Shown here: positions 506 through 54,400 of the stretch, in pieces
Layout: the number at the start of each line of letters is the position of its first letter
How positions within the stretch are numbered: position 1 is the stretch's first letter
From: Chiloscyllium plagiosum
Taxonomy: Eukaryota
Length of the DNA stretch: 64,000 nt
Assembly (NCBI RefSeq): GCF_004010195.1
Contig: NC_057752.1
Location: forward strand, 6,088,044-6,152,043
Direction: 5' to 3'
Translations under genes and position numbers: made by a program
Notes under the pieces: generated by a model
Told to the model about the DNA's origin: nothing
The model's input: only the letters and a program-made list of their open reading frames with translations
Database searches by the model: none

Positions 506-1646
506 ACCATAATCAAATTATTCTTACCAGATTATTCTTACAGATAACCAAGATCTCCTTACAATGTGTTGGGAAACGAGTTAAAACTTTGTTTAGCTAT
601 TTGTGTCAAGATCTTTCTAACTGTCTTACACACAGACCTGTTTTGTTTTGGGGGCGGGGTGAAATAAACTTATGTTCTGTTAAAGAATATCTGTGACCTC
701 ACATAAAAAGGTTTCAGTGACTAACCACCACATTGACCAACTGTAAACATTGCATATGTTACCTATCAAGTCAGGTTACATTCTGGGATCCAACTTGTTC
801 AGTATTATCATCAGCTGGAATCATATCATCCAGATCTCCATTCCACTATTATGACATTTCACCCATCATTGAAGAAATCAAAAGGTTTTCTCTCTGACTA
901 GGCAGCATTTTCAAGTGTGAACCATTCTACATGAAGCCACCCTTGTGACTAGCACAGCAGCAGACCTTCAGGTACCAATTGAGAAAATGAACAAAATGAT
1001 TGGAATGAAAATGAATGTATAAAAAGGCAGGCATTATGAAGACCAAACAAAATAATGGCAGGAAAACAGAAGTCAAGAGAAATGGTCAACAGGTTTGAAA
1101 CGGGTTTCACATTTTAACTTCCTGAGAAGACTCATGGGAGAAGATGTTTATTGTCATCAAGAAATTGAAGCTAGAATAGCAATGCTAAAGGATGCATTCT
1201 TCCAAACAGGAAGATAGGAGCAGGATTAGGCCATTTGGCCCCTTGTGCCTGCTCCACTATTCCCATTACTATTTCATGAGATATGGACATCACTGGCAAG
1301 ACCCTTGAACTGGGTGGCTTGCTGGGCTATTTCAGAGGGTGATTCAGAGTCAGTCACATTTCCGCAGGTCTAAAGCCAAACAGTGAGGACGGCAGATTTC
1401 CTCCCTTAAAAGGACATTGGTGAACTGGATGGGTTTTTACGACAACTGACAATAGTTTTACAGTCACCATTACCCAGACTAACTTTACTAATTTAAGTTC
1501 CAATGGTTGCCATGATGAAATTTATAACCAGTGTGGCCAGAACATTAGGTAAAATCAATGACTGCAGATGCTGGAAACCAGATTCTGGATTAGTGGTGCT
1601 GGAAAAACACAGCAGTTCAGGCAGCATCCGAGGCGCAGTAAAAATC

Positions 1647-1672
1647 GACGTTTCGGGCAAACCCTTCATCAG
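1647..1672 (-). ncRNA. Minimal hammerhead ribozyme core in a PLE terminal repeat (1548-1680)
   Basis: Minus strand: uucCUGAUGA A GGG UUUG CCC GAAAC GUC gauu. Both conserved boxes, stem II, palindromic ACGU stem III and the GUC cleavage triplet are present. Activity untested. Confidence 0.7.
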
Positions 1673-1983
1673 GAATACAGGCCTGGGTCTCTAGATTACT
1701 AGTCCAGTTACATTACCATAATGCCACCATTTCGTCCATATCCAAGATATCTTTAATATTGGAAGTCTAACAATTTCATTCTTCCAGTCAATAAACCTTC
1801 ACAGCCCTCTGGAGTAGGGAATTCCAAAGATCCACCACCTTCTGACTGAAGAAATTCCTTCTCAGCCCAGTTCTAGGTAGTCTATCCCTTAGTCTGAGGC
1901 TGTTTCGCCTGGTTTTAGCCAGGGACTACTCAGGATAAGAATAAATAGAGAATAAGATTAAAAAAATTCAAAATTACCATGCC

Positions 1984-2798: not shown

Positions 2799-2894
2799 CT
2801 GCCCTGGCCACATACCCATTAGAAAGGAAAGAAGCATGGAATGAATTGCCAGAGGAAATGGTGGAGGCCAGTACAATTACAACAGGTACAATAC

Positions 2895-6000: not shown

Positions 6001-9000
6001 GTGAAAAGGTTGCTCCTTCGGTCTCTTTTATATCTTTCCCCACTCACCCTAAACCTATGCCCTCTAGTTCTGGACTCCCCGACCCCAGGGAAAAGACGTT
6101 GCCTATTTACCCTATCCATGCCCCTCAATTTTGAAAAACCTCTATCAGGTCACCCCTCAGCCTCCGACGATCCAGGGAAAACAGACCCAGCCTGTTCAGC
6201 CTCTCCCCATAACTCAAATCCTCCAACCCTGGCAACATCTTTTCTGAACCCTTTCAAAGTATCCTTTAATACTCTTGGCTAGTAAGAAAAATCAGTTGGT
6301 CTCAGATTTAAACATTTCTATTGGAGCTCGCATTTGCTATATTGTGTGGGCCAATTTGACTTTTACCATCATTAGGGATTCTCAATATCTCTCCTCAATG
6401 GCCTCGCTCTGATTTTTCAAGTTAGGTCCTCAACTTACACTCTCCCTACTGGGGTTTCAGCGGCTTTGGTCAAGGAGACCGTTCCATCTCGGTTTATGCA
6501 AAGGAAATAATTGCAACAGTGGAATAAGAGCAGAGATTGTGTTTGAGTCAGCTTCACACATTGGTGTGGCCCAAGTATTCTATTTTTAAATACTTATTCC
6601 ATTCTATTCACAGAATCACCTGGAGAAGCAGGCTTCCATTCCTCCCTAATTTACCTGTATAAGCAGATTGCATTGTCACACTGGACAGACCTGAACTGCA
6701 CCCTCCCAGCGACATCAGTAAGGAAACATCAAACTTTGGCAGAACTCCAGAAGGGTTCCATTTGAAATGATACAAATTCCAAGCCTCATTTGGTCACAGC
6801 ATCAAGTTTGGTCATTTATACCCACACAAGCCCAGGTCAGGCCATACCGAACTGTGGGAGTGCTTTCCAAAGGGTTCCAGTGTGCATGTTTGGCAACTCC
6901 AAGCTCAACAGCTGCTTTCACTTTTCTACCTTTTATCTCGCACACAGCCATTTTGATGCTCCCTTTACTTCCTTTCCCAACATCTTCCTGCGAGTCGTAG
7001 TACGACAGCACAGTACCATCCAGCACAAAGTACCGTGGCTGCCAGCCTGTCAAAATGAAAGGGATTGGAAGAATCAGCAGAAGATTATGATTGCAACAAA
7101 TACAAAAAAAATTGTGGAAGGTTGTGAAGACACAACAATTTTAGGAACAGGAGGAGGCCATTTAGCTCCTCTAGCCTGTTCAGTCTCCATTCAATAAGGT
7201 CATAACTGACCTGCAACTTGACTCACATTTAGCAGCCTTTGCTTCTTAGCCCTTAATACAGTTGGTGAGCAAACTAAAGACCAGAAATTGTTGGAAAAAA
7301 GCTCAGCAGGTGGACAGAAATCAGAGTTAATGTTTCAAGGTCCAGTGACCCTTCATCAATTCTGAGGAAGGGTCACTGGACCTCAAAACATTAACTCTGA
7401 CTTCTCTGCACAGTTGCTGCCGGACCTGCTGAGCTTTTCCAGCAATTTGATTTCGTTTTGATTTACAGCATCTGCAGTTCTTTCAGTTTTTAAAAGACCA
7501 GTCTTAACTTTAACATCAACTGCGATTAACTTTGTAAATTTGAAGTCATTCGAAGCTCTGCTGTTCTGAGGCTTAACTCACACCAAATCCCATTCTCCTA
7601 TTACCCCCCCCCCCCCCGGGTCTCTGATCTACATTGACTATTATGGTCAGTCCCATAAATCAGCAGAGACATCGCTGCACTTGTTTAATTCTAGTACCCT
7701 TCAAGCACCTTGATTTTTAAATCACTCCACCATCGGTGGCTGCACCTTCAGTTGTTTGAACTCCCAAGTTCTGGGATTCCTTCCCTCTCTGTTTAAGAGG
7801 CTCCTTAAAACCTACTCGTTTGACCAAACGTCTGTGTGGCTCAATGAATATCCCTGAACATTACCTTTTGAATTAGGTTACTGATCTGGTCTGTGAAAAC
7901 AATTTGCAGAATTGCACATTGCAACTGCTAAACAACTGCAGGTACAAAACACAGTATCCCATGAAATTTCACATAACTGCTATAAGTGGCTGCCATTTGC
8001 ATCCCCAGACTAACTTCTGCGTCCTGCTCATTTAGACACAAATTCAAGAGTTAGCTTCGATATGCCTAGAACCCAAACTCCAGTCAAAAGACATTGTCAG
8101 CCTCGTGGCAGCTGATAGCTTGATGTAGTGTGCAACACATGGACACACTCGCACAGACTCCTGTGATAAAAGGACGTGGAACATTTAAGAAGTTGTGGCA
8201 CAGTGAGTCGTGCCCCTACCACTGGGCCAAACAGCTTCAAACCGTGCAAGTAATTGCTCAGGACTGAATGACCATGGAAGGCAAAAAGTAACGCAACAAA
8301 ACAGGTTGAACCAATGTTAAAAGGCTTCACTATGCAAATTGCTGTCACAAGCAAGTGTCATCCTTCTTCCAAGGGACAAACACAGCCACATCTCCTCGCC
8401 AATAGAGGGATTCTAGGGAATTCTTGGAGATTTCTGCAATGATAGTATTGATTAAAAGGAATCGGACAAGCAGGATTGCTTTCCCGCTCAAAAATCAAGA
8501 TCACATAATTCCAGAGGCAGCTGCGTCCCTCCCCAAAGGCTAACTCACAGATTACTGGAAAAGCAAACTGCAGCTTCTTGGACACACTGCCCAGGCCACT
8601 TAAAGCAGAACCCTGCAAACTCAGTCTGACGATGCACTCAGATGGTGCCACAGACACATTGCAAAACTCAAGCTTCTACAGTTTGCCTTTCAAATCCAAA
8701 GTGGCAAATTTGTGGCAGGGTTGTGCAGTTCCCGTTGTTGAATATATTTAAGACAGGAATCAATAGATTTCTAGATATTAAAAAAAGGTATCAAAGGAAA
8801 ATGGTGTAGAGGTAGATGGTCAGCCATGATCACATTGCATCATGGTGCAGAGTTGAAGGGCTGAATGGCCTGCACCTTTTCCTAATTTAGTAACAAGGGA
8901 AACATACAAATTAAGTGTTTCCAATCTGTGAACTTTTCCTTCACCAGGAGCTCTGTTTCCCTAAAAAGGAAACCTAAAGTCGACAAAATTTTCAATTTCA

Positions 9001-11341
9001 GGAAGCGACACTTGAAACCAGGCTACAGCACCAAGGAATGAATAGAGTAGGGTGTGGATAGAAGTATTTTGTTTCAGTTGAACTGGAGCTTGGTGTACAT
9101 TGTTTGGGAGCACCAGGCTCCACCTGTGTATGTTGGAGTGGCTGGGGTTAGAGTACAACTCAGAGTTTATGGTGAGGGAGCAGGTCAGCTCGAGTTGGAA
9201 AGCATGAAGAAAAAGGTTCACGATGAACAGCTGAAGCTTACCTATTGTTTCAACATTAGTCGATTTGGCCAGTTCTGTTGTAGCTGGCTGTTACACTGAC
9301 TGGGTTTCGACATTCTTATCCCAGCCTATTTACATTCTATACATTAAGTTCAGTACCAACCAGATCTCAGGCACACGGCTAGTAATAAACTGTTTCATTG
9401 CATTTTTCACCCAGATGATGCCATTGAGGATTGCAATGCCCTCTGAATGTGCCAGCCAATTAAAGACTGATCCATACGCAGATCAGCCAAGCAAGCAGGG
9501 GATTGAATAATTAAAAAGTTACTGTGAACTCTGTAAAGGGCAAGCCTTGCTCAGTTCTGAACAAAAGTCATATCAGACCCGAAACACTAACTGTTTCTCT
9601 CTGCAGACACTGCCAGCCGTGCTGAGTTGCTGCAGCACTTTTTATTTCAGATCTCAGTCATTTCAGTATTTCACATTTGTTAACAATTTTGCCTCCTCAG
9701 CTCTAGGGGTGCATGCTTCAGACCAAAGGTGTTGCCTTCCGGCTAGGGTGGTCCTACCAGTCAGGTAACAAGCCAATAAAAGGCACAAGAAATAGAAGCA
9801 GGAGTAGGCCATTTGGCCCCTCTCACCTGCTCCATTATTCAACAAGATCATGGCTCTCTGATGGTAGCCTCAACTCCACTTTCTTGTCTGATCCCACCCA
9901 ATCAATCAAAAATCTGTCTCATTCACCCTTGAATATATTCAAAGACCCAGCCTCCACTGCTTTCTGAAAAAGAGAATTACAAACACAATGACGCTCAGAA
10001 GAAATTGCTTCACATCTCTGCCTGAAATGAGAGACCCACTTATTTTGAAATCATGCCCTTTTGTTTTACATTCTGCCCCTTCCCATGGGAAACTTTCTCT
10101 CAGCAAACCTACCAAGTGCCCCCAGGATCTTATATATTTCAATAAGATCACTTCTCATTATTCTAAATGCCAATAAATGTAGACTCAACCTTTCCTCGTG
10201 CGCAATCTTTAGAAATCTTCTCTAAACTGTTTCCAATAAGGTACATGACTCCTTGAGTAAGGAGACCAGAGCTGTACACAGTACTCTGGGCACAGTTTCA
10301 ACCACATACACAGGTTACAGGTTCATTACATGCTCATGTAGATTTGACACATTTGCTCTACATCACAGGAGCAGACCATTCAGCCCACCTCCTCCATGCT
10401 AGTTTATACTCTAAACAAATGTTTCCCCATCCTTCATCGTCTCCACCAGCCTATCCTTCTATTCCTTTCTCCCTCGTGATTATCCATTCACTGCACCCAC
10501 TTCCTTGTGATTTTGAGTTTCACATTCTCACTGCTTTCTGGCTAAAGAGGTTTTTCCAGAATTTCCAACTGAGTTTATTAGTGGCTATATGATGTTGATG
10601 GCTTCTCAGTTCGGAGTTTTCACACAAAGGGAAATTGTAGCGTCCTTCTGCCTGCTCCGAGAAGCCATTTCATAATCGAAAGTGCTTCTTCTGTCAATTA
10701 ACTACATTTCTTACTTCCAGGCTCTCTTCCAATTCAACTAAACTCTGCCTGTAGAACTAAGGCTTGCTCAACCATTGCCAGAATCCAAACTAATTTCCCT
10801 AGCCCTCTTATTTCCTGAAAGGGAAAAGATCAACAAATGACCAGATTGTTGAACTGCAGCCACCCATCGTCTTTTCTGAACCCTTGATTTTGAAACGAAA
10901 CCTCAACAGCAACAATCCCTGCAGATGTTGGGAAAGACGAGGCAAGCTGCCCTTTAGAAAGCTTGCGTGGCTCAATTATGCGCCGGATTATCTGGTCGGA
11001 AGCCAAACAAAGCCCGAGGGTCGCACGCTGAATTGGCTACTGTCAGCTGTGGTAGAGACACGGGCCTCAACACCCCGTGTTCAGGATGGATCCAAACAGG
11101 TGTTCTCCCTCAAACAGCGATGCAGCAAACCTGCATCTGCAAAATCTACAGGAAGGAGACAGATAAAAGAACAACTGGCAATATGCACCGAGTGTCAGCC
11201 TTTTGCGGCGCCAGTACGCTGTTTCTTCAGGCTGCAGAAAGCTCAGTGCTGGTTAAGTTGTTTGGACAGCATCTGCAGCAAGGTATAAGACCCCATCTCA
11301 CCACTCAGATAATTGGTCCACTTGTGCAGTACTCCTTCCAT
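2895..11341 (-). CDS. PLEKHA3: FAPP-family PH-domain protein gene (PLEKHA3/FAPP1-like), coding exons 1-4; 3' part lies outside the window. join(11341-11302, 7046-6930, 5082-4927, 3031-2895)
   Basis: Spliced translation: [150 protein letters not shown]. This matches the FAPP1/FAPP2 PH domain plus the following helix. Exons are 40/117/156/137 nt, all GT-AG and in frame. Orthology to PLEKHA3, PLEKHA8 or a third paralog is not settled. Confidence 0.9.
4205..4550 (-). mobile_element. HE1-type tRNA-derived V-SINE
   Basis: Pol III A box tggctcagtggtta and B box gttcgattcc on minus, V-domain gtgggtttcctcgggtgctccagtt, HER1-like tail. Confidence 0.88.
4927..5082 (-). CDS. PLEKHA3: PLEKHA3-like coding exon 3 ([52 protein letters not shown])
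   Basis: Acceptor ttcttactag|TG, donor CGAG|GTGGTG, 156 nt, phase 1-1. Lies inside ORF 4814..5098. Confidence 0.93.
5340..5730 (-). mobile_element. Ancient SINE, probably of the DeuSINE (SacSINE1/AmnSINE-like) group
   Basis: Motifs gtagtcactgttgtaatgtagg..gcagccaatttgc and acagtgcagcactcc.tcagtactgc, recalled from that group. Not verified by search. Confidence 0.5.
5778..6260 (-). mobile_element. CR1/HER1 LINE 3' end
   Basis: ORF 5856..6128 ([27 protein letters not shown]...) plus the ctctatgac tail. Confidence 0.9.
6930..7046 (-). CDS. PLEKHA3: PLEKHA3-like coding exon 2 (PH domain: [38 protein letters not shown])
   Basis: Acceptor ttttgacag|GC, donor AAAG|GTAGAA, 117 nt, phase 1-1. Lies inside ORF 6802..7053. 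Confidence 0.95.
7278..7490. mobile_element. Palindromic PLE-derived element (family B) with a CUGAGGA...(G)AAAC hammerhead remnant
   Basis: cagagttaatgtttcaaggtccagtgacccttc|...|ctgaggaagggtcactggacctcaaaacattaactctg forms an inverted repeat centred near 7358. Confidence 0.75.
9785..10310 (-). mobile_element. Old CR1 LINE 3' fragment
   Basis: agaaatagaagcaggagtaggccattt...gatcatggct...ggagaccagagctgtacacagtactc. Confidence 0.65.
11302..11341 (-). CDS. PLEKHA3: PLEKHA3-like coding exon 1 ([14 protein letters not shown])
   Basis: Minus strand reads ATG GAA GGA GTA CTG CAC AAG TGG ACC AAT TAT CTG AGT G|GTGAGA. Kozak-like context gtcATGG, canonical donor. Confidence 0.93.
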
Positions 11342-11700: not shown

Positions 11701-11994
11701 GCGAATTGAAAAAGGCGAGTGCCAGGGTTTTGTAGTTTTGCGCTTTTATAGAAGGGCTAGGTTTACAACAGCAAAGAAGTTGCGTTCAAACTGTGCCGCC
11801 TGAGTTGGTTCATTATGTCCAGCTCTGGGCAGCGCACAGAGGGGAGGATGTGAAAGTATCAGGAAAGGTGCATCAAAAATTGATGCATGAGGGGTTCCAG
11901 GGAGACGAGAGAAACTCCAGCTGTTTTCCATGGAGAAGAGCAGGTTGAGAGGAGATATGAAGGGCTGGACAAAGGAGAGATTTCTTTTTAATTA

Positions 11995-12281
11995 AGTAAA
12001 AACAATGACTGCAGATGCTGGAAACCAGATTCAGGTCCACGCCCCCCTATGACCCACCCTCCCATCCTGGCACCTTCCCCTGCCACCGCAGGAACTGTAA
12101 AACCTGCGCCCACACCTCCTCCCTCACCTCTATCCAAGGCCCTAAAGGAGCCTTCCACATCCATCAAAGTTTTACTTGCACCTCCACTAATATAATTTAT
12201 TGTATCCATTGCTCCCGATGCGGTCTCCTCTACATTGGGGAGACTGGGCGCCTCCTAGCAGAGCGCTTTAGGGAACATCTC
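11995..12281 (+). mobile_element. Penelope-like element fragment, GIY-YIG endonuclease region, preceded by a short inverted terminal piece
   Basis: Translation PGTFPCHRRNCKTC...[37 protein letters not shown] shows a Cys knuckle plus (G)IY...YIG..RFREH. Truncated by the gap. Confidence 0.9.
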
Positions 12282-14600: not shown

Positions 14601-15183
14601 TCTTATGTTTGTTTCTTATGTTAAAAGACATTTGGATAGGGACATGAATAGGAAAGGTTTAGAGAAATATGGACTAAATGCAGCTAAGTGGGGCTAGTTT
14701 TGTTTGGAAAACTTGGTCAGTATGGACAAGTTGGACCAAAGGGACTGTTTCCATGCTGTATGACCTCTGGGGCAGGTGTATGACCTCCAGCATCTGCAGA
14801 CCTCACTTTCTCCTCTGGGGCAGGTGCCTTGGCCCTCTTGGCCTAGAGGTAGGGACACTACCAGGTAGGGTGAAACTGTTCCTGGAGCGATTGAGAACAA
14901 GTGGACACCAAAAGTGATTGATTTGATTGATTATTTTCACGTGTACCAATATTGTGAAAAATATTGTTTTGCATGCTAACCAGTCACATCATACCTTACA
15001 TAAGTACAACAGGGTAATAGAGCAGAATACAGAATATAGTGTTACAGCTACAGAGAAGATACAGAGAAAGGTAAACTCTAATATGAGAGCTGAAAGAATT
15101 GCAGATGCTGTAAATCGGAAACAAAAACAGAAGTTGCTGGAAAAGCTCAGCAGGTCTGGCAGCATCTCTGAAGAGAAAGTCTT

Positions 15184-20125: not shown

Positions 20126-20129
20126 GAGT

Positions 20130-20966
20130 TGTGATATTATAGACTTCATAACTTTTAATAACTGTTCATGGATTGAATGAATCGGCAAAAGAAAACTGTT
20201 ACACACAAAAGAAAACAGCAATAACTCTGCCTGGAATAAGCAGTTAAGGAACAAGCTGCTACATGGAGACTGAAAACAATAAGCCATGCCTTGGAAAGGA
20301 GGAGGTTGAGATTTCATGAATAAAACTGCTTTGACATCTGCTTTATAAACTGGATGCTTTACTGTCACAAAGGTAGACAAGTAGGAGGCCAGAAGAACAC
20401 AGCAAGTCAGGCAGCATTAGGAGGTGGAGATGTTTCAGGTTTAACCCTTCCTCAGGACACTTATTTCTTATTGTCATAAAGGACAATGATTGGCCTACAG
20501 ACGAATTTAAGGAGTTAAATACAGGAAAGCTTTGTCTTCAAACAGACAGTTAAGGCCAAATGTAGCAAGGAACAAAGAAGCTACTTCTGATAAGAAGGCA
20601 AGCTGCAGTCTCAAGGACTCCAGGAGGACAATCAATATTTTGGATGAAAGGTCTTTAAGAAATCATCAATCTATCACCTCAGAGATCTGAAGGAGGAAAT
20701 TCTGTGTAAGAATTGAACAGCAAAACTCCCCTTTAGCAGAAGTCCGGAGAACAACTTTGCATAAAGTTTGAATCCTCGACACAGGTTCCACCATGAATCG
20801 GATAATAGCAAAGTCAGGCTATTAGGCTTAACTTGCTTATTGAGGGGTCTTAATTTAGTTGCTACGTGCAATAAAGTGTAAATCAGTGTTTCAGGACTTG
20901 ACTGCCTGTGAGATTTCTTAATAAATAGCCGAATTAAATGTAACTTGTGGTGATTTAGCCACAACA
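20130..20966 (+). mobile_element. Solo LTR (TG...CA, 4-bp TSD GAGT) inserted in an L2-like LINE; contains a PLE terminus at about 20385-20460
   Basis: gagt|TGTGAT...CCACAACA|gagt. The host L2-like sequence resumes after the TSD. Confidence 0.75.
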
Positions 20967-24489: not shown

Positions 24490-24690
24490 AAAGCAAAATA
24501 CTGCAGATGCTGAAGATGAGAGCTAAAACGGAAAGGTCTGGCAGCCTCCGTGGAGAAAGACAAAAGAGATAATGTTTCAGGACAATGATCTTTCTGTAGA
24601 ACCCCCATCATCAAACCTGAAATGAAAGCTCTTTCACTTTCTCCAGAGGCTGCCTGACCTTCTGAGCATTTCCAGCACTTTATTTGTGTT
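24490..24690. mobile_element. Older palindromic PLE-terminus element (family B-like)
   Basis: aaaatactgcagatgctg...aatgtttcagg / cctgaaatgaaagct...ctgcctgaccttctgagcatttccagcac. Confidence 0.55.
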
Positions 24691-36400: not shown

Positions 36401-39400
36401 ATATTCTGTTTATTGCCAAGGATGAGGAATTTGTGCAAGGGGATTTACAATTATACTGCTAAAATTTGTGCTTTGCTCAAATTCAAGGTGGTGCCCTCAG
36501 GTGGTCCTGGAATAGTGCCCAGTAACAGTCAGTGTCTCCAGGATGGAAGAAAAGTTGGAAGAAACCCAAACTAAAAACCATGGCAAGTGCTGTCCAGCAG
36601 AGGGAATAAGTGCACCATGAATCAATATTGCAAACTCCATACCTATTCCAACAGTGGACAAATCCCCAGAATTTAAGAGTAAACATACAAAACATTTATA
36701 CAGTAAATGTTTTAAGGAATAATTGATCACAGATTATTTATAATTTGGTTCTGATGGTAAGAGTTTGTATCACAATCACTTCATTAAAAATAAAAAGCAT
36801 TAGAGAAGTTCACAGACCAAGGTCAGATAAACATTTTAGAAAGCAAACCACAATCCTAACCACAAGCATTATATATTCCAATATACCATTCCCAGCCAAT
36901 CATTCCATTGGAAAAGGGACCGAATTCTGACAAAACTGTGAGATGGAAAACCCATCTCGAATTTCCTTTGCTTCATGCTCGTCCAGGCCAACAAAGCTCA
37001 GAGTGCTAATAGGAAATAAACGGAGTTGGCCATTCAGCCGTTCCAGTCTGCTAAACTATTCAATAAGATTACAGTAGATCCTTGCTCTCGAATCTACTTT
37101 CCTATCTGTCACCACCAACCTCAGCATCACCCAAACCAATACCTTGGTTCCCTCAGTGTCCAAATGGCTGTTGATTCCATGCTTGAATATTGCTCTTCCA
37201 GCGCCACTAATTCAAAATCTGGTTTCCAGCATCTGCAGTCATTGTTTTTACCTACCCTGATTATCAATTGGGTCTGTTTCTGAGCTAGATGACTCTCTGA
37301 CTCAGTAACTGAGCTTCCATGGCCCTCTGGGATAGCAAAAGTTCAAAGATTCATGACCCTAGGGGTGCAAGTACATAGTTCCTCGAAATTGGTGTCGTGG
37401 GTACACAGGATGGTGAAGGAAGCATTTGGTATGCTTGCTTTTATTGGTCAGTGTATGGAGTCTAAGAGTTGGAATGTCAGGTTGTGGCTGTACAGGATAT
37501 TGGTGAGACCACTTTTAGAATACTGCATACAATTCTGGTCTTCCTGCTATAGGAAAGATATTGTTAAATGTGAAAGGGTACTGAAAAGATTTACATGAAT
37601 CTTGTTGGGGTTGGAGGTTTTGAGTTATAGGGAGAGGCTGAACAGTCTGGAGCTTTCTTTCCCTGGAGCATCGTAGGCTAAGGGGTGACTTTTAAGGTGA
37701 GGGGGAAAGACTTAAAAGGGATCTGACAGGCAACTTTTTCATGCAGAGGGTAGTGCATGTATGGAATGAGCTGCCAGAGGAAGTGGTGGAGGCTAGTACA
37801 ATTACAACATTTAAAAGGCATCTGGATGTACTGGTGTATTAATAGGAAGGGTTTAGAGGTATATGGGCCAAGTGCTGGCAAATGGGACTAGATTTATTGA
37901 GGATATCTGGTCAGCATGGATGAGTTGGACCGAAATGTCTGTTTCTGTGCTTTATAACTCTATGACTGATTAAGAAATTTCTCCCATTTGAATCCAAAAT
38001 GGCTGAGCCGTTACCCTACTATGAAATTACCTCTCATTTTTCTAAATCTCCAAAGGATACTGGTCCATTCATTCCTCGTTGGGCAATTCTGTCCCACCCC
38101 AAGAAAGCAATTCTTCACATTTCAAGCATTCTGAGGCTTTACAAGACATTGTGGATTCATTTGGAAAACTTCCCTTGTTCAATGAAGGCACAGCTTCATC
38201 CCTCCCTCAACAGGTGACAGTGATACGTGTGATCTTTAACCTGTGTCTTGAAAGCACTCAAGGTTGATTCTCCCCAAATATTCTGTAAGTATTTAGGTTT
38301 ATCTCGCCCTGACCCCCATCTCTTCCCATTCCCAATACTTTACAAGAAGACTGCTATCTTTTAGGTTCAGAGGGTGTGTTACCTTTGTCTGGAATCTTTA
38401 GCTTGTAGGGCAGGGAGATGGGTGTGATGGAGTGCTGATAAACCAGGGCTGATAGACTACCTGCATCAAACACAAAAGCCGGTTAGTTTTCAATCCCAAG
38501 GAATCACTTTGCAAAAGTATCTGAAGGGTCACTTTCTAAAGAAAACTCTTGCATTTATATAGTAGCTTAATACACAGTAAAACATTCCAAAGAACAGCAC
38601 TAGAAGTTGTAAATACCAGAAAGTCACAGATCACTCCAACAGAAAATTCAGGAGCAACATCTTTACCCATAGAGTGTGAGCATGTCGACGTTGCGACCAC
38701 AGGAAGTGGTTGAGACATATAATATAGATGCATTTAAGGAAGAAAGGTGATGAAACACCAGGGAGGCAGGGTTAGAAGGATAGAGCTAGATGAAGAGAAA
38801 TGGAAGGGAATTTGTGTGGAACAGAAATACCAGCACAAAACTGATGGGCTGAATGGTCTTGTTCTCTGCTTTTCTGTGTAATTCAATACCGTTTGATCTG
38901 TGATAAGTCATTTGGTCATGTCAGTAACTGAAGGTATGACCAATGGTGCAGTGACTAAAGTCGGCAATGCTCAAGAGGTTGGAAGTGAAGGAGCACATCA
39001 ATCTGTGGCTGCTGAAATGGGAGATTTTTCTGAGCGGTCTGACTTTGTTTTATCATGTGGTGTTTTAGTGACTGAGTGGTTTGTTTAAAAAAAAAGAGTT
39101 CTTTGCTTGACTTGGGGTGGCTCCTATTCGTTGCTCCTAGTTATTGAAGCTGTGGACAATGAATCAATCCAGCACATTGAGACTCTCGAAGATGCTCTCT
39201 CCAGCAGCATCCAGCATCTTACCAAAGTGAGGCTCATTCTGGCAACCCTTGATCTTCACCCCTTTTGGGCCTGTCTCGATGAGGAAATGCCTGACCAGCA
39301 GCTCATTGGGATCACCTGCAGGGACAATTTGCAGAAATTAGGACAGCACTGTGCCAAAAAAAAACGATGCGTGCGATACCCAGCTCAGTCCATCCAAGCC

Positions 39401-42400
39401 TAGCCTTCTCCGGATCCCTTTGCTCCCCAGCTCGCGAGGCCCTCACCACCGTAAATGAGCTGCCTTGTATATTCCAGTTACTAACAGTGGAAAACCCAGA
39501 GTGGGTAGTGGGTCAGAGCAAGACTGGCCAGGACAACAATCCCTTGAATTAAAGTAAAATCCTGCAGATGCCAGAAGTCTGAAATAAACACAGAGAACGC
39601 TGGAGAGACTCGGCATGCCTGGTAGCTTCTGCGAAGAGAGAAACAGAGTGAATGTTTTGAGTCCAGTATGACTCTTCAGAATCTCTCCAGTCTTGCCCAG
39701 TGACAAGACTCCGATGATGTGGAGGTGCCGGTGCTGACTGCAAGTGAACAGGCCCAGGCGAGCAAAGTGACTCCTCTTCCTTAGACTGCTCTGTGACCAA
39801 GGAGTCAGATCGAGTCTTCCCCATTTGCCTGTTTGGCCCTGATAAGTGAAATCCCATCTCATCCCCTGAAGCCCCCTCAATTCTATCGGTCTCACTTGCA
39901 GGTTGATGGGTGGTGCTTGCAGTTACAGTAAGAGTGGAAAGACCGCACAGGGAAGGTCCTTCAGCCCAGCGACCCCCCCATTCTGCATCCTGCAAACCCG
40001 TTTGTCCCACTCTCCCGCTCTACCCCTGTGAGTTTATTTTTCTCAATTGCCCATCCAACGCTTTTCAAAATCATTTATTGTCTCCATTTCCATCACCCTG
40101 TACGTTCTGATGCTAATTAAAAGTGGGCCAGCCTGTCAAGCAGCAGTTGCTGGCACATTCTTCATTTAAACAATGGAGCAGGGAATAGATTTTGCAGAAT
40201 TGTCCACAACCTTGTTCAGGAAGTGATGGGGGAGAGAGAGGAAGGGCTTGAGGGGGTAAAAATCGATTTGGAGCCACACACTGGGATCAATTCTGCAACT
40301 ACCCGCTGCAAGCTGGGATAGAACTGCAGTCAAAGTTCCCCTGAAACGTTCACAGTCAAACACAGGGCTGGATATCTGAAACATACCTTTCGTGCTGTGT
40401 GAGCTGAGGTTAGCTGGAGGTGTCACCACTTTGAGGGCAAGGCCATAAGCTCCCTGGAATGAATTGCTGTCTCGAATGAGAAAGGAGCCTGGCTCGCGAT
40501 CTTTCAAGAGGGCGATAGCTGCGAATGTGAGATATTGGATAACAGGATTTTACAATTCTGAATTACTGCTGCGAATGGCCTGCATGAGTGATTTGCTCAG
40601 ATCAGAAAAATGAGCAGTCACAAAGCTTCCTCCCATTAAACTCCAATCCACTATTTCAAGAATATCCGGAACAAAGGAACAGGAGGAGCCCTCTCCAGCC
40701 TGCTTTGCCATTCAGTAAGATCTGGGGCCTAATTCCATATCCTCACCTTTTGCTCATAACCTTTTTTTTAACCTTTGTCTAACAAAATTTACTAATTTTA
40801 GATATAACATTTACCACTTATTGAGCATCAATTGTCATTTGTGAAAGTAAGTTTCACATTTTTATCACCCTCTGTGCACAGACATGTTTCCTAATTTCAT
40901 TCGTGAAAGATCTGGCTCCAATGTGTGAAAATATGGTCCTTTACTTGAGCGTACGCCCATAAGATACAGGATCAGAATTAGGCCGTTCATCCCATCAAAT
41001 CTGCTCCACCATTCAATCATGGCTGATATGTTTCTCCAGCCCGTTCTCTTGCCTTCTCCTGTAACCCTTGATCCCCTTACTAATCAAGAACCTATCTCTC
41101 TCTGTCTTAAATACACTCAATGACATGACAGCAATGAATTCCACAGCCCTTCATCCCCAGGATCATTCTTGTAAACCTGCTCTGGACCCCCCTCCAACAC
41201 CACCAAATGCTTCCCTAGATACGCAGCTTTTTTGTAATGCCTACAATATTCCAATGCAGTCTGACTACAGGCTTATACAGCTTCAGCAGTACATCTCTGC
41301 TCTTGTATTCCAGCCTCTTGAAATGAATGCTAACTTTGCATTGGCCTTCCTAACTGCCAAATGAACCTACAAATTAATTTTAAGAGAATCCTGAACCAGG
41401 ACTCCTAAGTCCCTTTGTCCTTCAGGTTTCCGAAGCCTTTCCCCATTTAGAAAATAGTTAACAGTTATTTTAAATCACGTAATAGCGTCATAAAATCGCA
41501 CACATAGGAATGTTAAATTAACGGGCTAAGAATGTTTACCAGCATCACCAAATGTTATTTATAATCTGAAGATACTTAATGGCTTACTCATTAAAAAAAT
41601 ATGTTCCATGCCCCGTGCAAGTATCAAAATCCATATGTAAAGAATGTTGTAATTATTGTAAATAGACAGCACTGCACAAGATCTCTACATTTTCAATGAG
41701 AACAAAATACTGTGGATGCTAGATATCTGAAGCAAACACAGAATGTGAAGGTGCCGGTGTTGGACTGGGATGGACAAAGTCAGATGTCACATGACACCAG
41801 GTTACAGTTCAACAGGTTTATTTGAAATCGCAAGCTTTATGAGTGTTGCTGCTTCATCAAGTGGAGTCAGACTGGGTTTGATTCCAGCCTTGGGCAACTA
41901 TTTGTGTGGAGTTCTCCCTGTGTCTGCACGTGTTTCCTCTGGGTGTTTCTGTTTCCTCTCCCAGTCCAAAGATGTGCAGGTTAGGTGGATTGGTCATGTT
42001 AAGATGCCCATAGTGTCCAGGGATGTGCAAGCTAGGTGAATTAGGAAAATGCAGAGTTACAGGGGATGGGTCTCGATTGGGTGCTCTTCATAGGGTTGGT
42101 GTGGACTTGATGGGCTGAATGGTATACTTCTATGCGCTAGGGATTCTATAATGCTGGAGAAACTCAGCAGGTCTGCAACATCTGTGAAGAAACAGTGAAT
42201 GTTTCAAGTCTGGTATGACTTCTTCAATGCCCATGGTTTGAAACACAGACAAATAAACCTATAAGATAGAAGTTACTTTAAAAGGTACACTCTGAACAAT
42301 TTGTAGCTGCAATTTATTTCAATGGAGCTTCAGCATTTCTCATGGAATCTTACACACAAAATCCACTTTGTACCTTTGATAATGTGAATATCGATTTGTC

Positions 42401-45400: not shown

Positions 45401-48400
45401 GTTGCATGTCCACCCTCCACTGTCCCAATGCTGTTGATGATTTCAGATATATAACAAACATGAAAAAATACTGTTAAAAAATACTCCGTTTTTATTCATT
45501 TCTGGGATATGGGCATCGCTAGCATTTATTGCCCTTGAGAAAGCAAAGTGAGCCACCTTCTTGAATAAAGGGCGAAAGTGAGGACTGCAGATGTTGGAGA
45601 TTAGAGTCGAGAGTGTGGTGCTGGAAGAGCACAGAAGATCAAACAGCATCTGAGGAGCAAGAGAATCGACATTTTGGGCAAAAGCCTTTCATCAGGAATG
45701 AGGCTGTGAGCCGAGGGGGTGGTGAGATAAATGGGAGGGGGTGGGGCTGGGGGAAGGGAGCTGAGAGTGCAGTAGGTAGATGGAGGTAGGGGTGATGGTG
45801 GTAGGTCAAAGGGGAAGGTGAAGCGAATAGGTGGGAAGGAAGATGGACAGGTGGGACAGGTCATGAGGATGGTGCCGAACTGGAAGGTTGGAACTGGGAT
45901 AAGGTGGGGGGAGGGGAACTAAGGAAACTGGTGAAGTTCACTTTGATGCAATGGGGTTGAAGGGTTCTGAGGCAAAAGATGAAGCGTTCTTCCTCCAGGC
46001 GTCGGGTGGTTAGGGAGTGGTGAAGGAGGAGGCCCAGGACCTGCATGTCGTTGGCGGAGTGAGAAGGGAGTTGAAGTATTCAGCCAATGAAAGGTGGGGT
46101 TGGCTTCTGCAGGTGTCCCAGAGATTTTTCTGAAGCGCTCTGAGAGTAGGCATCCTGTCTGCACAATGTAGAGGAGACCGCATCGGGAGCAACGGATACA
46201 GTAAATGACGTGTGGAAGTGCAGGTGAAACTTTGATGGATGTGGAAAGGTCCTTTGGGGCCTTGGATGGAGGTAAGGGGAGAGGTGTGGGCACAGGGAAG
46301 GTGCCAGGAGGGGAGGGTTTGTTGTTGGGGCGAGGGGCCCTGACAAGGGAGTCGTGGAGGGAATGGTCTTTACGAAAAGCGAATGGGGTGGGGAGGGAAA
46401 TATATCTCTGGTGGTGGTGTCCATTTGTAGGTGACGGCAATGATGGAGGATGATGCGATGCGGTGGAAGGGGGGTTCTGTCCTTGTTGCGGTTGGAGGGG
46501 TGGGGTTCGAGGGTGGAGGTGTGGGAAGTGGATGAGATGCACTGGAGGGCGTCATCAACCATGTGGATGGGGAAACTGCAGTCTTTAAAGAACGAAGTCA
46601 TCTGGTGTGTTCTGTGGTGGAACTGGTCCTCCTGCGTTCACAGATGGAGGCACACCAGATGGCCTCCTTTATTAAAGACCACAATTTCCCCTCCCACATT
46701 GTTGATGATGCCCTCCAGCGCATCTCATCCACTTCCCGCACCTCTGCCCTCAAATCCCACCCCTCCAACTGCAAAAAGGATAGAACCCCCTGGTCCTCAC
46801 CTTCCACCCCACCAACCTCCGTATACATCGCACCATCCTCCGCCATTTCCACCATCTACAAATGGACCCCACCATCAGAGATATATTTCCCTCCCCACCC
46901 CATCTGCATTCCGGAAAGACCATTCCCTCAGCGACTCCCATGTCAGATCCATGTCTTTAAAAGAGGAGAAAGAGAGTCTGAGTGTGAGTGCATATGTGTC
47001 AGCCAGTGTGACAGCACATTGATGTGTGTTTGTGAATGTTTATGTGTGTGTATATGTGATATGTGAGAGAGTACAGATATTTCACATCACAGAATCATAG
47101 AGATATACAGCACAGAAATGGACCCTTCAGTCCAAATTGTCTATGTCGACCAGATATCCTAAATTACTTCAGTCCCATTTTCCAGCATTTGGCTGATGTC
47201 CCTCTAAACCCTTCCTATTCATGTATCCATCCAGATTAGTTTTAAATGCAGTAATTGTACCAGCATCTTATATCATTCTGATTAACATTATTTCATTTTA
47301 ACGTTGTTTACTATTTGTGACCTGTTCCTTTGAAATATATCTTCGTTGCCAGTGTAATGACATTTTTTGCATTATCAGGTCACACGTAATCACATCAGGA
47401 CCTAATCAGAAGACATAGGGGCAGACAGGCAAAGTGGAAAAGGCAGAGGGAGAGAGAAACATGCGCGTGTGCACACACACACACGATGGGGTGCCACATG
47501 GAGATGGGTCAGGATCCAATTGCAGGATGATTTGGTTTTGTGAAATAAGTTACAGTTAATGGTGGGAGTTTGAGCAAGTTGTCATGAACTGCTTAATTCC
47601 TGCAGTCTGCAGCAGCCGTTCCAGTTTCTGAGAACCACTGTGGTGCAAATGAAATGCAGATGCAGTGAGACGAGGAAGCAGTTGAACATAACAACTTTCA
47701 ATCTATTCTTGATGAGGAGCTGTCAGATTGAGCTTGCAAGGTTCAGCTGTGTGTTATCTTAACTGACAGAATGTGACAACTCAGAAGCTCTGGATACATT
47801 ATTTCATTCCAATAAACTCCTGAAGCAGCCTTAATTTACAAAAAAAAATTCTGCTTTTGATTTAGTTTTATTTCTTCAATGTGCTGCTATAAATCCTGTT
47901 GCAATTGTGTGCTGTGTTTCGAATTGTCAGTCAGCTTGATGTGTACACACTGACTAAATGCTCAGGTTTCAACCAGATGAAACACTCTCACTAAACCTGC
48001 TTACAACTGGATTTAAAATGAAAGGTTTTCCAGCCATCCAGAGGCATTAGCGAGTTTTGAGAAGATTTGTAGCTCAGGTTGAGGTTCTGGATGTAGGTTT
48101 GCTCGCTGAGCTGGAAGGTTCGGTCTCAGAAGTTTCGTCACCATACTAGGTAACATCATCAGTGAGCCTCCGGATGAAGCACTGGTGACATGGCCCACTT
48201 TCTATTTGTGTATTTAGGTTTCCTTGGGTTGGTGATGTCATTTCCTGTGGTGATGTCATTTCCATGGATGTCATTGCTTGTTCTTTTTCTCAGGGGGTGG
48301 TAAATGGGATCCAAGTCAATGTGTTTGTTGATAGAATTCCGGTTGGAATGCCATGCTTCTAGGAGTTCTCGTGCATGTCTCTGTTTGGCTTGTCCTAGGA

Positions 48401-51400
48401 TGGATGTGTTGTCTCAGTCGAAGTGGTGTCCTTCCTTATCTGTATGTAAGTGAGAGTGGGACATGTCTTTTTGTGGCTAGTTGATGTTCATCTATCCTGG
48501 TGGCTAGTTTTCTGCCTGTTTGTTCAATGTAGTGTTTGTTACAGTCCTTGCAAGGTATTTTGTAAATTCTGAGCAAAAAACCCAAACAAGCAGACAAAAC
48601 ACATCCTGAAACCCTAGCCAGTCTCCCTACATCAAAGACATCTCGGAAATGACTGCCAGACTAGTCAGACTCCATGGCATCATGGTAGCCCACAAACCCA
48701 CCAACACATGAAGACAGCAGTTAATGAACTTGAAAGACCCTATACAGACAACAACAAAACTAATGTCATTTACAAAATACCGTGCAAGAACTGCAACAAA
48801 CACTACATTGGACAAACAGGCAGAAAACTAGCCACCAGGATACATGAACACCAACTAGCCACAAAATGACATGACCCAGTCTCACTAGTATCCTTACATA
48901 CGGATGAGGAAGGACACCACCTTAACTGGGACAACACATCCATCCTAGGACAAGCCACACAGAGGCATGATTGAGAATTCCTAGAAGGATGGCATTCCAA
49001 CTGGAACTCTGTCAACAAACACATTGACTTGGATCCCATTTACCGCCCCCTGAGAAAAAGAACAGGAAACGACATCACCATGGGAAATGACGTCACCATA
49101 AGAAATGGCATCGCCAACCCAAGGAAACCCAAATGCACAAATAGAAAGCGGGCCATACCACGAGTGCTTCATCTGGAGGCCCACTGATAATGTTACCTAG
49201 TATAGCGATGAAACATCTGAAAACGAACCTTCCAGCTCAGCGAGCAAACCTACATCCAGATTCAGAAGCATTTTGTACTAAAATAAAACACTGTGGATTA
49301 AACTCAAGATAAAGACAGAAAATGATGGATAAATTCAGCAGGTCGGGCAACAACTGTGGAGAGAGAAACTAAGTTAACATTTCAGATCCATGGCCCTTCA
49401 TCAGAACTGGGAAAAGTTCCAGGTTGTGACAGGATTTGAGGAAGTGAAAAAGAGGGAGGGTGGAAAGAAGAATAAAAGGGAAGGTCAGTGAGCAGTTGAA
49501 GGGCAGGAGACGTTAAATAACAAAAGGTTTCATGCTGGCAAGGCCAAAGAGAATGGGAATGAGACAACTAAAATTATGAAAGCTGTTTCCAGAGGTGTGA
49601 ATGCCAAGACAGCAGCTGTCTAAGTACAAATTAAGGGAATAAGACACAAAACCGAGCACTCGTCCCCAGTCATGTCTCTGTTTGTGTGTGTGTGTATGTT
49701 TGCGCTTGTGTGTGTGTGTATTGATGAGGATCATTACATGAGGGCAGCAGCAACTCCTCCACAGTTGACACTTGAATAACTTCTTAGAAAAGACACACTG
49801 GCTGGAATTGGACCCCACTGGGAATTTGCTCCGTGTGTGTGTGTGTGTGTGTGTTGGTGGACTGCAGGGCAAAATTGATAGAGAATAGTATTTGATGAAG
49901 AGCAGGCTTTGAATGACATCTATCACTGCACTGGCATCTACAAGACAATATGCACAACAGTTACATACATACCCTTGAAGGCTTAGAAAGTGTATTTTTA
50001 AATTTAGAATTAGGAATTTGGATTTTCTTGCATTTAAATTCCTCTATTTCCTCACCTCTTCCTGGCTTTGTAATCTCCTCCAGCCCCGCACCTTCTTTGA
50101 CATGTGCATTCATTTAATTCTGGCCTCTTGCACATCCATTACTTCTGTTGCTCTCTCATTGATGGCCGTGCCTTTAGCTGCTTGGGCCCTGTACTCTGGA
50201 ATTCCCTTCCGAAACCCCTTGGCCTTTTTCTCTCTACCCTCCTTTAAGACACTCCTTAAAACCTACCTCTTTGATCAAGCTTTGCAATCTGTCCTAAGAT
50301 CTCCTTGTGTGGCTCGGTGTCAAAGGTTGTCTGATTATCATTTTTGCCAAGTACCTTGGAGAAATCTTATTCCATCAGGAGTGTACAAATGCACATATTT
50401 TTTGGTGTTGGTGAGCAGACAAATTCAGCAGACCATTTATTGCCCTGATGTTGCTGATCCGACCAGTAAGAAAGGGGTGCTTTGGACACCATTGTCAGAG
50501 CCTTGTTTTTTGAGGGGCCTCATGTTGTGCTGATATTGTCTCCATAGGAACCTAGCAGCATGGATGGAGATGACTTTCAGATGAGCTGTGAGAAGCAGGA
50601 TCAAATGAGTGTACTGGGCCTCACACTATCATGTTGTGCTGATATTGTCTCCATAGGAACCTAGCAGCATGGATGGAGATGACTTTCAGATGAGCTGTGA
50701 GAAGCAGGATCAAATGAGTGTACTGGGCCTCACACTATCACTCATTTAATAAGCACTCATTCAATATTCATGGCAACGAAGGTGATTGATGACTGAGAGT
50801 CAGACTGCTACATAAATGTATAAAGTCAGCCTCCAGTATGGCTGCCTGCATGCCAAAATCTGCCTTCTTAGTGTGCTGCCAGGGGAATGCTTCCATCTGC
50901 CACATGTGTAATCCATTCTCTGCTCAACAGATGTTAGATAAGTGGAAGCCAGCTCTCCTATCAAGTTCATTCCACGCAAGTCACATCACCCTTCCCTTTT
51001 TATCCCTGAAAATTTCAAGCCTTTGGTATCTCTTAGGGATGAAAGATGGATATCCAGGCAAGGACATTATTAATTCAGAAAATGGTATGTATCAGTGGAT
51101 CACTGCTCGCTTCCTTTTAAAGTAATGAAAAACACAGCCTGACCTGAAGAATCAACTCTGTTTCTCTTTCCAAAGAGGCTGCCAGACCTGCTGAGGATTT
51201 CCAGCATTCTCGGTTTTCATTTCAGATTTCCAAGTGTTTGCTTTTGCATGAATGCTTGTATCATGCTGTTCTAACCTGACAAATAACCTATTTATTTTAT
51301 GGACCAGCAAATCTGTGAGAATGGGGAGGGAGGGGGACTGTGGGGAATGCTGCACAAAGATGTTAAGCAAGTATCCATTGATACCATGATCAACCATTTC

Positions 51401-54400
51401 AAGGCGACGAGAACAACAGGGGCACTGAAAGGCTTTCATGAGACCAGGGAAACAGAATTATTAGCAGGTTATTCCCACAGATTTGTCACGTCTCACCTTG
51501 AATAGGACATATATTCTTCATAATGAGGAAAAAAAATGCAATAACGTGTTCAAAATCATGAGGTGTCCAGGCAGAAGCAATTGGGAGAAACTGTTCCCAT
51601 TGGTGGAAAGATTGAGAACCAGGAGACATAGATTTAAGGTGATTAGCCAAAGAAGCAATGTCAACATGAGAGAAAAAAAAGACACAGTGAGTGGTTAGGG
51701 TCTGGAATTCACCACCTGAAAGTGTAGTGGAGGCAGATTCAATAAGTGCTTTCAAAAGTGTACCAGATTATTATCTGAAAGAAAATATTTTCAGGACTGT
51801 GTAAAGACAGGGGAGTTATGTTGCTCTTGTACAGATGGCAGGGATACACAGGTTGATTACCTCTTTTGGTGCTGTAAACATTGTATGACTCTTTGACAAA
51901 TGTTTTACCTCCTTGGCTACCAGTCATTTAATACTCTTTACCAAGTATTTCTTAATGTCGCTGGGGCATCACATTATAAACCGCTAGTGATTTTTAGTGG
52001 TTCTGTCAGAAATAACTTAATAGGTTTGGTACATTTTTCACAATTCCACATATTTGTGTGTCTATATATTGAAGGTAGGAAACAAACCTTCAATTGACTG
52101 CTCCATAAAAGGAGTGAGAATACGTCTTGTGATGCAGCAGATAACACCCTGGTTTGAGTCCCACGGCAGGATTTGATGGAACAACGTAAATGTGAGTGTA
52201 ATGAAGCCAACCAGGTTGAATATAGGCTTGTAACTTCTCCGAACACATCCCAATGGCTGGGAGTAAAAGCATGAGAGATTCCTTGTTGTATGGAAAAAAA
52301 TTGGAACCTCTTCCATTCCTATCGTTAGCTCAAGACTACAATAAGCTTGTGAAAGTGTACACTGCCACCACCTGAATGAGAGCTTTTGCTGACAATTCTG
52401 GTGTTGCCATTCAAACCTTCTCTTGTTTCTTGTTCCTGCACTTGCTCAATTGCCACTCCCTTTTGCTTTGCGCATCTTTTCTGTCATTTAATGACAGAAT
52501 GCTATCCATAGGATGCTGTCCATCCTATGACAGACCTTCCCTTTTGTTCCTTTCCCACTCCTCCTTCTCCCTGCCTCCGTACTTGCTCTGAATCTGCTAC
52601 ATCTTTGCCCGGTTTTGATGAAAGGCGATTGCCTAAAATATTACATCTGTTGCGTTCTGCCTTCTAGCTTGACATGCATCCTGTTACCTTACTTAGAAAA
52701 TTTAATTTCACTATTTCCCATCGCTTCTCAATGATGCTATGCCCCCCCATTCAAAAAAGAAGGCACCAAATTCACTGGCATTTCCACGAATGGGCAGGGC
52801 AATAATCCATATTGCCACCTTGACTGACAAACATGGAGTGAAGAGCTTAGAAAGAAGGACCCGCTAAGGGGTAAAAGTGAAAAAAAGGTAGGTGAGGCGA
52901 TTGCAGTTAGTGATGTCAAGCCTGGTTCCAAAGAGTTGTTGGTGGTGGACTGTGGAATTGTTGGTTTTACTTACAGTGTGGAAACAGGCCCTTCAGCCCA
53001 ACAAGTCCACACCGACCCGCACCCACCCAGACCCATTCCCCTACACCTAAGACTACAGGCAATTTAGCATGGCCAATTCACCTAACCTGCACATTTTTGG
53101 ACTGTGGGAGGAAACCCACGCAGACATGGGGAGAATGTGAAAACTCCACACAGACAGTTGCCTGAGGTGGGAATTGAACCCGGGTCTCTGGCGCGGTGAG
53201 GCAGCACTGCTAACCACTGTGCCATCGTTGGTTGTTGAAGGACTGTGGAATTGTTGGTTGTTGAAGGACTGTGGGAGCCACCAGTCCTTTTTTTTAAATT
53301 AGATTCCCTACAGGGTGGAAACTTTAAGTCCTAACAGCCTGGAAAGAATGAGTTGGAATGACGTTGTGAGATACAGAAAAGAAACATCCTGCATAGTCCA
53401 TCCAACTCTGACTGCTGTAACATGTAGGCGAAAATGAGGACTGCAGATGCTGGAGATCAGAGTCAAGATTAGAGTGGTGCTGCAAAAGCACAGCAAGTCA
53501 GGCAGCATCCGAGGAACAGGAAAATCAATGTTTCGGGCAAAAGCCCTTTATCAGGAATGAGGCAGGGAGCCTCTGGGGTGGAGAGATAAATGGGAGGAGG
53601 GTGGGGCTGGGGAGAAGGTAGCTGAGGGTGCAATAGGTGGATGGAGGCGGGGGTAAAGGTGATAGGTCAGAGAGGAGGGTGGAGTAGATAGGTGGGAAGG
53701 AAGATTGACAGGTAGGACAGGTCATGGGGATGGTGCTGAGCTGGAAGGTTGGAACTGGGGTAAGGTGGGGGGAGGGGAAATGAGGAAATTGGTTTAAATC
53801 CACATTGATGCCCTGGGGTTGAAGAGTTCCACGGCGGAAGATGAGGTGTTCTTCCTCCAGGCATCGGGTGGTGAGGGAGTGGCAGTGGCGGAGGCCCAGA
53901 ACCTGCATGTCCTTGGCAGAGTGGGAGGGGGAGCTGAAATGTTCGGCCATGGGGTAGTGGGGTTGATTGGTGCAGGTGTCCCGGAGATGTTCCCTAAAGT
54001 GCTCTGCGAGAAGGTGTCCAGTCTCCCCAATGTAAAGGAGACCACATTGGGAGCAACGGATACAATAAATGACATGTGTGGATGTGCAGATGAAACGTTG
54101 CTGCTGTAACATGTAGCCCAGCAACATGGGCTCCTTCATAGGCACCTTCCAAACTCACGATCTCTACCACCACCAAATATAGGACAGTACGCACGTGGGA
54201 GCATCACCACCACAAGGTTTCCTTCCAAGTCACTCACCATCCTGACTTGGAAATATATCGCCGTTCCTTCAGCATGACCAGGTTAAAATCCTGGGACTCC
54301 CTCCCTAACAGCACTGAAGGTCTACCTACAGGAAAGGTGATTATCTGAAATATTAAGCAGCTCACCACCACCTTCTCAGGGGTAATTTAGAATGGGTAAT

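Follow-up and report, generated by a model that had tools for sequence, protein, structure and literature searches.

Hammerhead-ribozyme-bearing ends of several Penelope-like element lineages in the Chiloscyllium plagiosum genome and the probable origin of their short copies

Minimal hammerhead ribozymes (min-HHRs) are known from the pseudo-LTRs (pLTRs) of metazoan Penelope-like elements (PLEs) (Cervera and de la Pena 2014, PMC4209133). Judged by the available portion of that paper, the motifs analysed here in Chiloscyllium plagiosum share with min-HHRs the type I topology, an extra base between positions 9 and 10.1, a G10.1 that starts stem II, a palindromic 15.2-16.2 segment without loop 3, and a short stem I. 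The occurrence of several families per genome, mostly as solo copies, is also common to both, and the U3-A8 variant found here was reported there from Schistosoma. No shark row was found in the available portion of its alignment. In D. virilis, according to the accessible text of PMC2377424 and PMC4209133, the ribozyme follows a short first exon and an intron and does not stand at the start.

Neptune and Penelope/Poseidon elements (Arkhipova 2006, as given in PMC8557442; PMC3846280), as far as the available parts of these sources describe them, resemble the present elements in a reverse transcriptase (RT) with a DKG motif, a C-terminal GIY-YIG endonuclease, the presence or absence of a Cys-rich linker, 5' truncation, inverted copies, an optional tail of 30-40 bp, target duplications and TATA/Inr-like motifs in the pLTR. 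In contrast to these elements, many copies here are reduced to ribozyme and tail, and inversions meet at the ribozyme. PLEs have also been noted in the whale shark, in a source available in part.

A mechanistic account, again available in part, concerns PAc, a Poseidon element of Anolis carolinensis (Frangieh et al. 2024, PMC11167929). Reverse transcription begins internally, at two sites in the tail; nicking and extension affect both DNA strands, the template is uncut RNA, and the ribozyme cuts only in the presence of the protein. The present elements likewise have, behind the ribozyme, a tail with two priming ends, place the module at the ORF start, and appear to have been extended on both strands. 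The PAc scheme is built on in vitro results, whereas the present elements are known from sequence.

Animal non-LTR retrozymes have been described as PLE derivatives (Li, Clavereau, Pollet, bioRxiv 10.64898/2026.07.22.740005, available in part). A 224-nt unit found here is likewise non-coding with tandem ribozymes; however, its arrays comprise 2-4 units with mixed junctions, and the bulk of the short copies, hereafter stubs, are solo or inverted. The earlier note had called such lineages poorly described in elasmobranchs. Our literature search agreed: neither shark families of PLE ribozymes nor a start site located at stem I was the subject of any paper found, but the accessible part of the 2026 preprint does place PLE-derived retrozymes in one chondrichthyan. 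The ribozyme class, the dimer model, solo copies, inverted copies and the tail are already published. The class being known, the present finding is a further example of it.

The analysed window is a stretch of 64,000 nucleotides. It is apparently intronic, in a gene on the minus strand that has an SH2 exon (Pfam E 4e-05) and is presumably tensin. The hammerhead motif, or its decayed remains, was present at all 11 sites for which it had been claimed; those at 7362 and 49185 lie on the plus strand and the other nine on the minus strand. A profile search extended the list to 23 ribozyme-module copies (A 8, B-type 12, P 2, C 1) and gave 0 matches in the reversed window sequence. A covariance model trained on ten copies outside the window scored 10 of the 11 sites at 17.5-42.5 bits; it missed the decayed family C site, family C being absent from its training set. 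A strict descriptor returned 29 matches in 449 kb versus 0-1 in each of 10 dinucleotide shuffles. With Rfam covariance models at E<=1, the window yielded no hammerhead. Two of the 11 listed copies (1647-1672 and 35518-35545) have retained both core boxes together with palindrome and cleavage triplet; the remaining nine carry G8, G12 or 16.2 changes or are truncated. The features of the window are collected in Table 1.

Table 1. Penelope-like element modules and fragments in the window, with positions counted from its first nucleotide
Feature	Position	Strand	Remarks
Family A end module, full tail, no upstream body	1548..1676	-	core 1645-1672 intact; stem II 2 nt shorter
Family B head-to-head pair joined at ribozyme 5' edge	7279..7490	7279-7358 -, 7362-7490 +	both cores damaged
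Decayed family B end module, absent from the earlier note's list	9557..9649	+	
Family A inverted tail end adjoining Zn-finger linker and GIY-YIG fragment (+), entering assembly gap	11991..12281	.	
Family B tail without ribozyme	15090..15179	-	
Subfamily B2 end module (listed earlier as B at 20430)	20342..20458	-	stem III palindrome mutated
Old family B head-to-head pair	24534..24700	.	
Family B end module without 5' core box	26899..27033	+	
Family A palindrome centred on ribozyme 5' edge	35407..35652	.	- arm core intact, + arm G12 mutated; 15-bp target-site duplication (35407-35421, 35638-35652)
Family A inverted pair, join inside ribozyme	36001..36195	.	15-bp target-site duplication; 5' core box lost
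Family A tail alone	37191..37254	+	
Decayed family B end module	39581..39677	-	
Decayed family C end module and tail	41745..41863	-	
Decayed family B end module	42150..42226	-	
5'-truncated family A element: frameshifted endonuclease region, 3' UTR, ribozyme (G12 mutated), tail	45571..46640	-	
Family P (putatively Poseidon-type) inverted pair, each arm GIY-YIG region, ribozyme and tail	48050..49262	48050-48567 -, ~48610-49262 +	both cores damaged
Family B end module	49309..49404	-	core boxes intact; stem II mismatched; palindrome 15.2 mutated
Decayed family B end module	51138..51232	+	
5'-truncated family A element: GIY-YIG domain, 3' UTR, ribozyme (G8, 16.2 mutated), tail	53412..54116	-	16-bp target-site duplication

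Subfamily majorities fit the minimal type I consensus given in the available portion of PMC4209133. The core boxes C3-A9 and G12-A15.1 and the NUH triplet are present in every family majority, and the extra base that marks the minimal type I hammerhead precedes 10.1 in the stem II region. Stem III is a loopless 4-nt palindrome; families A, B and P share one sequence, whereas C has another and also differs in its cleavage triplet. In subfamily B3, U3-A8 replaces C3-G8.

Covariation was assessed on an alignment of ten natural copies from nine subfamilies, family C being left out because MAFFT shifted it. Over all stems, 83.5% of cells paired and six of eight pairs showed double changes, compared with 20-44% pairing in slid controls. 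For stem II the values were 87% of cells and three of four pairs, several representatives having been picked by a descriptor that demanded this stem. Stem I, never a hit-selection criterion, paired in 80% of cells versus 17-35% in slid controls. None of 500 shuffles reached the observed value, a count that is not a probability because the ten representatives are related. Its pairs 1 and 2 formed in all ten representatives, with three and two pair types, respectively, and double changes. Two further measures, the number of pairs with double changes and that of further pair types, were no better than in shuffles, and whole-module folding was no better than that of shuffled sequences (z -1.15 to 0.64). 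By eye, family C has a stem I of 3 bp; the commonest A subfamilies have a weak one (two pairs, a U-U mismatch, one pair).

Subfamily majorities and covariation thus support the earlier proposal of several parallel PLE lineages of minimal type I hammerheads with compensatory pairing at the lineage level. Invariable pairing of stem II, as stated earlier, is true of family majorities but not of every single copy, an exception being the mismatched one at 49376. The claim of a selected RNA structure has to be divided in the same way. Covariation and the U3-A8 core swap argue for selection on master elements. In contrast, selection on dispersed copies was ruled out, as their core decays like the flanks: among 89 sampled family A copies, chosen by tail and flanks, 36 have an intact core, and mismatch in core columns (variable position 7 excepted) is 0-22%, highest at CpG and similar to that of the flanks. 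Selection is therefore confined to the master lineages, and the dispersed copies are neutral relics.

The linkage of families A and P to a GIY-YIG endonuclease, noted earlier, was borne out by endonuclease fragments ahead of the modules in the window. Pfam PF01541 matched three of these fragments with E values of 0.011, 0.0006 and 0.0003, all below the curated cut-off, and did not match the fourth. The fragment at 53.5-54.1 kb shares 66% identity over 111 aa with an intact family A protein. Outside the window, locus L298 contains an open frame with a DKG motif, an RT (RVT_1 E 4.7e-08), a Cys-rich linker and GIY-YIG, with a family A ribozyme and tail behind it. Family B at L038 and family C at L090 and L053, the last across an assembly gap, are joined to an RT thumb region plus endonuclease, so that B and C, like A and P, prove to be PLE ends as claimed. 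For family P, the endonuclease alone was found ahead of the ribozyme module. Families A, B, C and P are accordingly ends of endonuclease-bearing PLEs, and the short repeats are for the most part decayed pieces of at least these four families.

The Cys-rich, Zn-finger-like linker is clear in A and C, degenerate in B and absent in P. By the criterion of linker presence or absence in the accessible part of PMC8557442, A and C would be of Neptune type and B probably so, the linker being common to Nematis, and P would be of Poseidon type. The family A module also occurs upstream of a conserved ORF start, which lies ~164 nt after the core and past the tail; the PAc start codon, in contrast, is at the beginning of stem II (PMC11167929, available in part). 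The family A anchor beyond the tail has 1,953 exact genome matches. Standing both before the ORF start and after the frame, the family A module is therefore a true pseudo-LTR. A pLTR at both ends, inverted truncated copies and an optional tail are the PLE traits observed. A search for a gap-free full-length element recovered none, all candidates having assembly gaps or internal deletions.

One exact 28-nt family A pattern had 19,641 matches in the 3.56 Gb assembly and 0 for the reversed control. Abundance was sampled at fixed positions on contigs C1-C42, where 120 stretches of 10 kb comprised 1,143,426 called bases. The profile search detected 394 copies (A 199, B 79, C 62, P 29, B3 14, B2 11) occupying 3.17% of sampled bases, and 12 of the 120 stretches had none. 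If the whole assembly resembles the 80 mid-chromosome stretches, with 238 copies per 757 kb, this sample of 0.03% of the genome corresponds to an estimated ~1.1 million copies. A relaxed descriptor gave 87 matches in the sample versus 2 in the reversed control, with one match outside all families; by extrapolation, ~260,000 descriptor-passing motifs would be present genome-wide. The available portion of PMC4209133 gives ~4,000 motifs for coelacanth and 9,000 for Xenopus, which are only roughly comparable with these exact-pattern and descriptor counts because the descriptors differ.

Most short copies reach from a point shortly before the ribozyme to one of two ends in the tail. Two clusters of 3' ends, separated by ~35 nt, are seen in A, C and P and are less distinct in B. 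Breakpoints of reads and contigs match them, likewise at two positions in the tail; these two-position 3' ends are the PLE tail. Target duplications of 15-16 bp were found at 3 of 13 window insertions and of <=9 bp at the others. A head-to-head partner lies within 1.2 kb of 113 of 199 A copies, 80 of these within ~25 nt, while 25 are tail-to-tail.

The 5' ends concentrate at the front edge of the ribozyme. Of 80 solo A copies, 36 end within 15 nt of the core. The A 5'-end rate is 0.028 per nt near the core versus 0.003-0.007 farther upstream (4-9 times). Among non-zero A stops, -4 is the most frequent (29 copies); it is also where 161 raw reads, whose flanks are mixed, break off. In family C, -9 accounts for only 6 of 37 ends and -2/-3 for more, a distribution due in part to a reference artefact; in B, 14 of 25 score 0 against the only two long copies. 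Family C matches occur in two length variants. Long B and C copies have an upstream box 29-32 nt before an A; we take these, by general promoter consensus, to be a canonical TATA box and an initiator-like base. Family A subfamilies carry a position-conserved AT-rich upstream box that matches TATA poorly. Family P has a TATA box and mostly long copies, without a 5' pile-up. Non-tandem copies bearing the ORF start also begin, by eye, at the ribozyme front edge. A cap-derived extra G was sought at the 5' junctions and not seen (8% G at -5).

Since the 5' boundary is accompanied by an initiator-like base and by a box of TATA or TATA-like sequence, the stubs are likely run-off copies of the transcript 5' end. 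We consider it probable that they derive from PLE RNA initiated at the ribozyme front, primed at the tail and copied on both strands, with the predicted ribozyme cutting the RNA of tandem master copies. The predicted start of transcription is the initiator base, ~30 nt downstream of the box; it precedes the core by 4 nt in A and B and by ~8 nt in C. If the RT were primed in the 5' module, a stub lacking the promoter would result; longer truncated copies would come from priming in the 3' module, and head-to-head pairs from priming at the nicks of both strands. The ribozyme is predicted to cut only as a dimer or with the help of the element's protein; cutting would process or silence the RNA of tandem masters, and uncut RNA would be the copied template. 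The evidence for the start site is good for A, thin for B with its two long copies, and mixed for C.

The same pile-up of 5' ends could arise if the RT were blocked, or switched template, at the ribozyme of the 3' module, be it folded, dimerised or bound by protein, with no RNA start involved. The clustering of A ends at the stem I edge, the additional C ends at -2/-3 beside its 3-bp stem I, and the many inversion junctions that lie inside the ribozyme with short homologies all agree with such a block, as does the PAc protein, which binds near its ribozyme and assists it (PMC11167929, available part). However, a block should stop the enzyme on entry from the 3' side and not after full passage. 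The canonical TATA boxes of B and C, 29-32 nt ahead of the initiator-like base, and the front edge shared by non-tandem ORF-start copies also speak against it, and we regard this explanation as unlikely.

For the head-to-head pairs, self-priming on the antisense template could replace priming at both DNA nicks, an idea put forward for rotifer PLEs on the basis of palindromic junctions (PMC3846280, available part). Here, however, both arms end outward at tail positions beside the target duplication, as two tail-primed cDNAs would, and in the accessible data PAc extends both strands in vitro (PMC11167929). Two-strand priming is thus preferred, and self-priming seems improbable to about the same degree as the RT block.

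Self-cleavage of the motifs is predicted from their structure. Copy starts were considered as evidence of cleavage and rejected, the count at the cut site being no higher than in other registers: among the first 100 listed of 5,242 family A matches, 12 stop at the cleavage site, while by hand count two other registers have 12-13 and neighbouring ones 1-7. Of the 199 profile matches, 11 start at the cleavage site or within 3 nt after it. Start or end pile-ups were sought in ~2,600 poly(A) single-cell reads of run X19 and none was found; run X20 had no matching reads. A search of the reads for a cleavage pile-up was also negative, this test and the count of copy starts both being insensitive. 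RNA reads break where DNA contigs break, as expected from passive transcription of dispersed copies.

The motif might persist as a structural or protein-binding signal with cleavage lost in these lineages. The weak stem I of the commonest A subfamilies and the lack of a cleavage pile-up in the reads would fit, and in the available part of PMC11167929 PAc ribozyme mutants transpose normally in vitro and RNA-seq lacks cleaved ends. On the other hand, the catalytic nucleotides are kept in all families, including the compensatory change from C3-G8 to U3-A8, and the palindrome is maintained through sequence change, as catalytic selection predicts. We hold loss of cleavage to be quite unlikely and retain the prediction of a cutting ribozyme.

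Abundant non-autonomous derivatives had also been proposed. One real self-propagating unit was found, an internal deletion of 224 nt with an identical junction in 37 genome matches. It is rare, and most stubs correspond to the autonomous end module. Ten of 12 examined loci of this unit contain two to four tandem ribozymes with a perfect 4-bp stem I, and several loci share whole arrays. Tandem, non-coding ribozyme units characterise non-LTR retrozymes, and the 224-nt unit has this form, while window copies are solo or inverted; the unit is retrozyme-like but rare. Most short copies look like truncation or run-off products because their 5' ends and inversion junctions are variable and their sequence is that of the autonomous end module. 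It is very unlikely that the stubs are independent SINE- or retrozyme-like families arising from their own short or circular RNAs: the recurring, mostly tandem unit and the vertebrate retrozymes of the preprint (bioRxiv 10.64898/2026.07.22.740005, available part) lend this some support, but derivative matches number 37 against about a million stubs, the stubs lack an upstream promoter-like box, share subfamily marks with long copies, and show no clear excess of cleavage-site starts.

Origin of the stubs from transcript 5' ends can be extended to a wider picture, which we put forward tentatively and judge somewhat short of an even chance. RNA would start at the first nucleotide of stem I under a pLTR TATA/initiator, the roughly one million stubs (3% of DNA) would be the fossil record of two-strand reverse transcription, primed at the tail and run off at the capped end, and the ribozyme would de-cap tandem masters. 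The ~260,000 core-intact copies, many of them intronic, could also cut host pre-mRNA through pairing in trans.

The copies constitute a large natural data set on how PLEs are copied and what role the ribozyme plays. Their ends offer in vivo support for internal priming and two-strand extension, which has so far come from only one purified protein. They also predict family-specific transcription starts, and the proposed link from start site to stub is the testable addition made here. The 224-nt tandem unit with its perfect stem I provides a ready substrate for a dimer cleavage assay.

Upstream of its RT, the family A ORF carries a long N-terminal extension that contains a tandemly repeated stretch rich in Ala, Thr and Pro. 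Among the copies bearing the ORF start (loci L211-L240 of the same genome, outside the window), the majority were chimeric, with the 3' UTR or the ribozyme fused at variable points onto a short 5' part. These variable joins suggest frequent template jumps. Stem I of the internally deleted 224-nt family A unit is perfect and 4 bp long; in its tandem form, the unit is a candidate retrozyme-like element. No copy of subfamily B3 was found within the 64-kb window.

Both core-intact ribozymes of the window are in sense orientation relative to the host gene, which resembles a tensin. The LINE 3' ends are presumably CR1-like, and the 109-bp duplication is possibly an assembly artefact.

Positions of the features in the window and at loci outside it (L-numbers)
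Feature	Position	Strand	Remark
Family A N-terminal extension	L261:1185-2300; L262	minus	
224-nt family A unit	L243:5708-6200	minus	short tandem arrays
	L244:3078-3700	plus	
	L263-L274		
Subfamily B3	L033:5845-6075; L090:4067-4184; L111:6919-7120		core swap U3-A8
Family A tail	1548-1645		
Family B tail	7395-7490		
Host-gene exons	40166-40549, 44443-45495, 58054-59829	minus	SH2 match in one exon
Minisatellite	16401-19208		34-bp unit, ~83 copies; adjoins assembly gap
Tandem duplication, 109 bp	50520-50740		exact, 100% identity
LINE 3' end, several copies	5776-6257, 21864-22933, 37358-37967, 62548-63438		weak RT match
tRNA-like head	21676-21740		

Conserved blocks are common to the tails of families A and B, and a similar nested hairpin is predicted in both, unlike the ribozymes of the two families, which differ. 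Together, the common blocks and the predicted hairpin may represent a protein-binding and priming signal.
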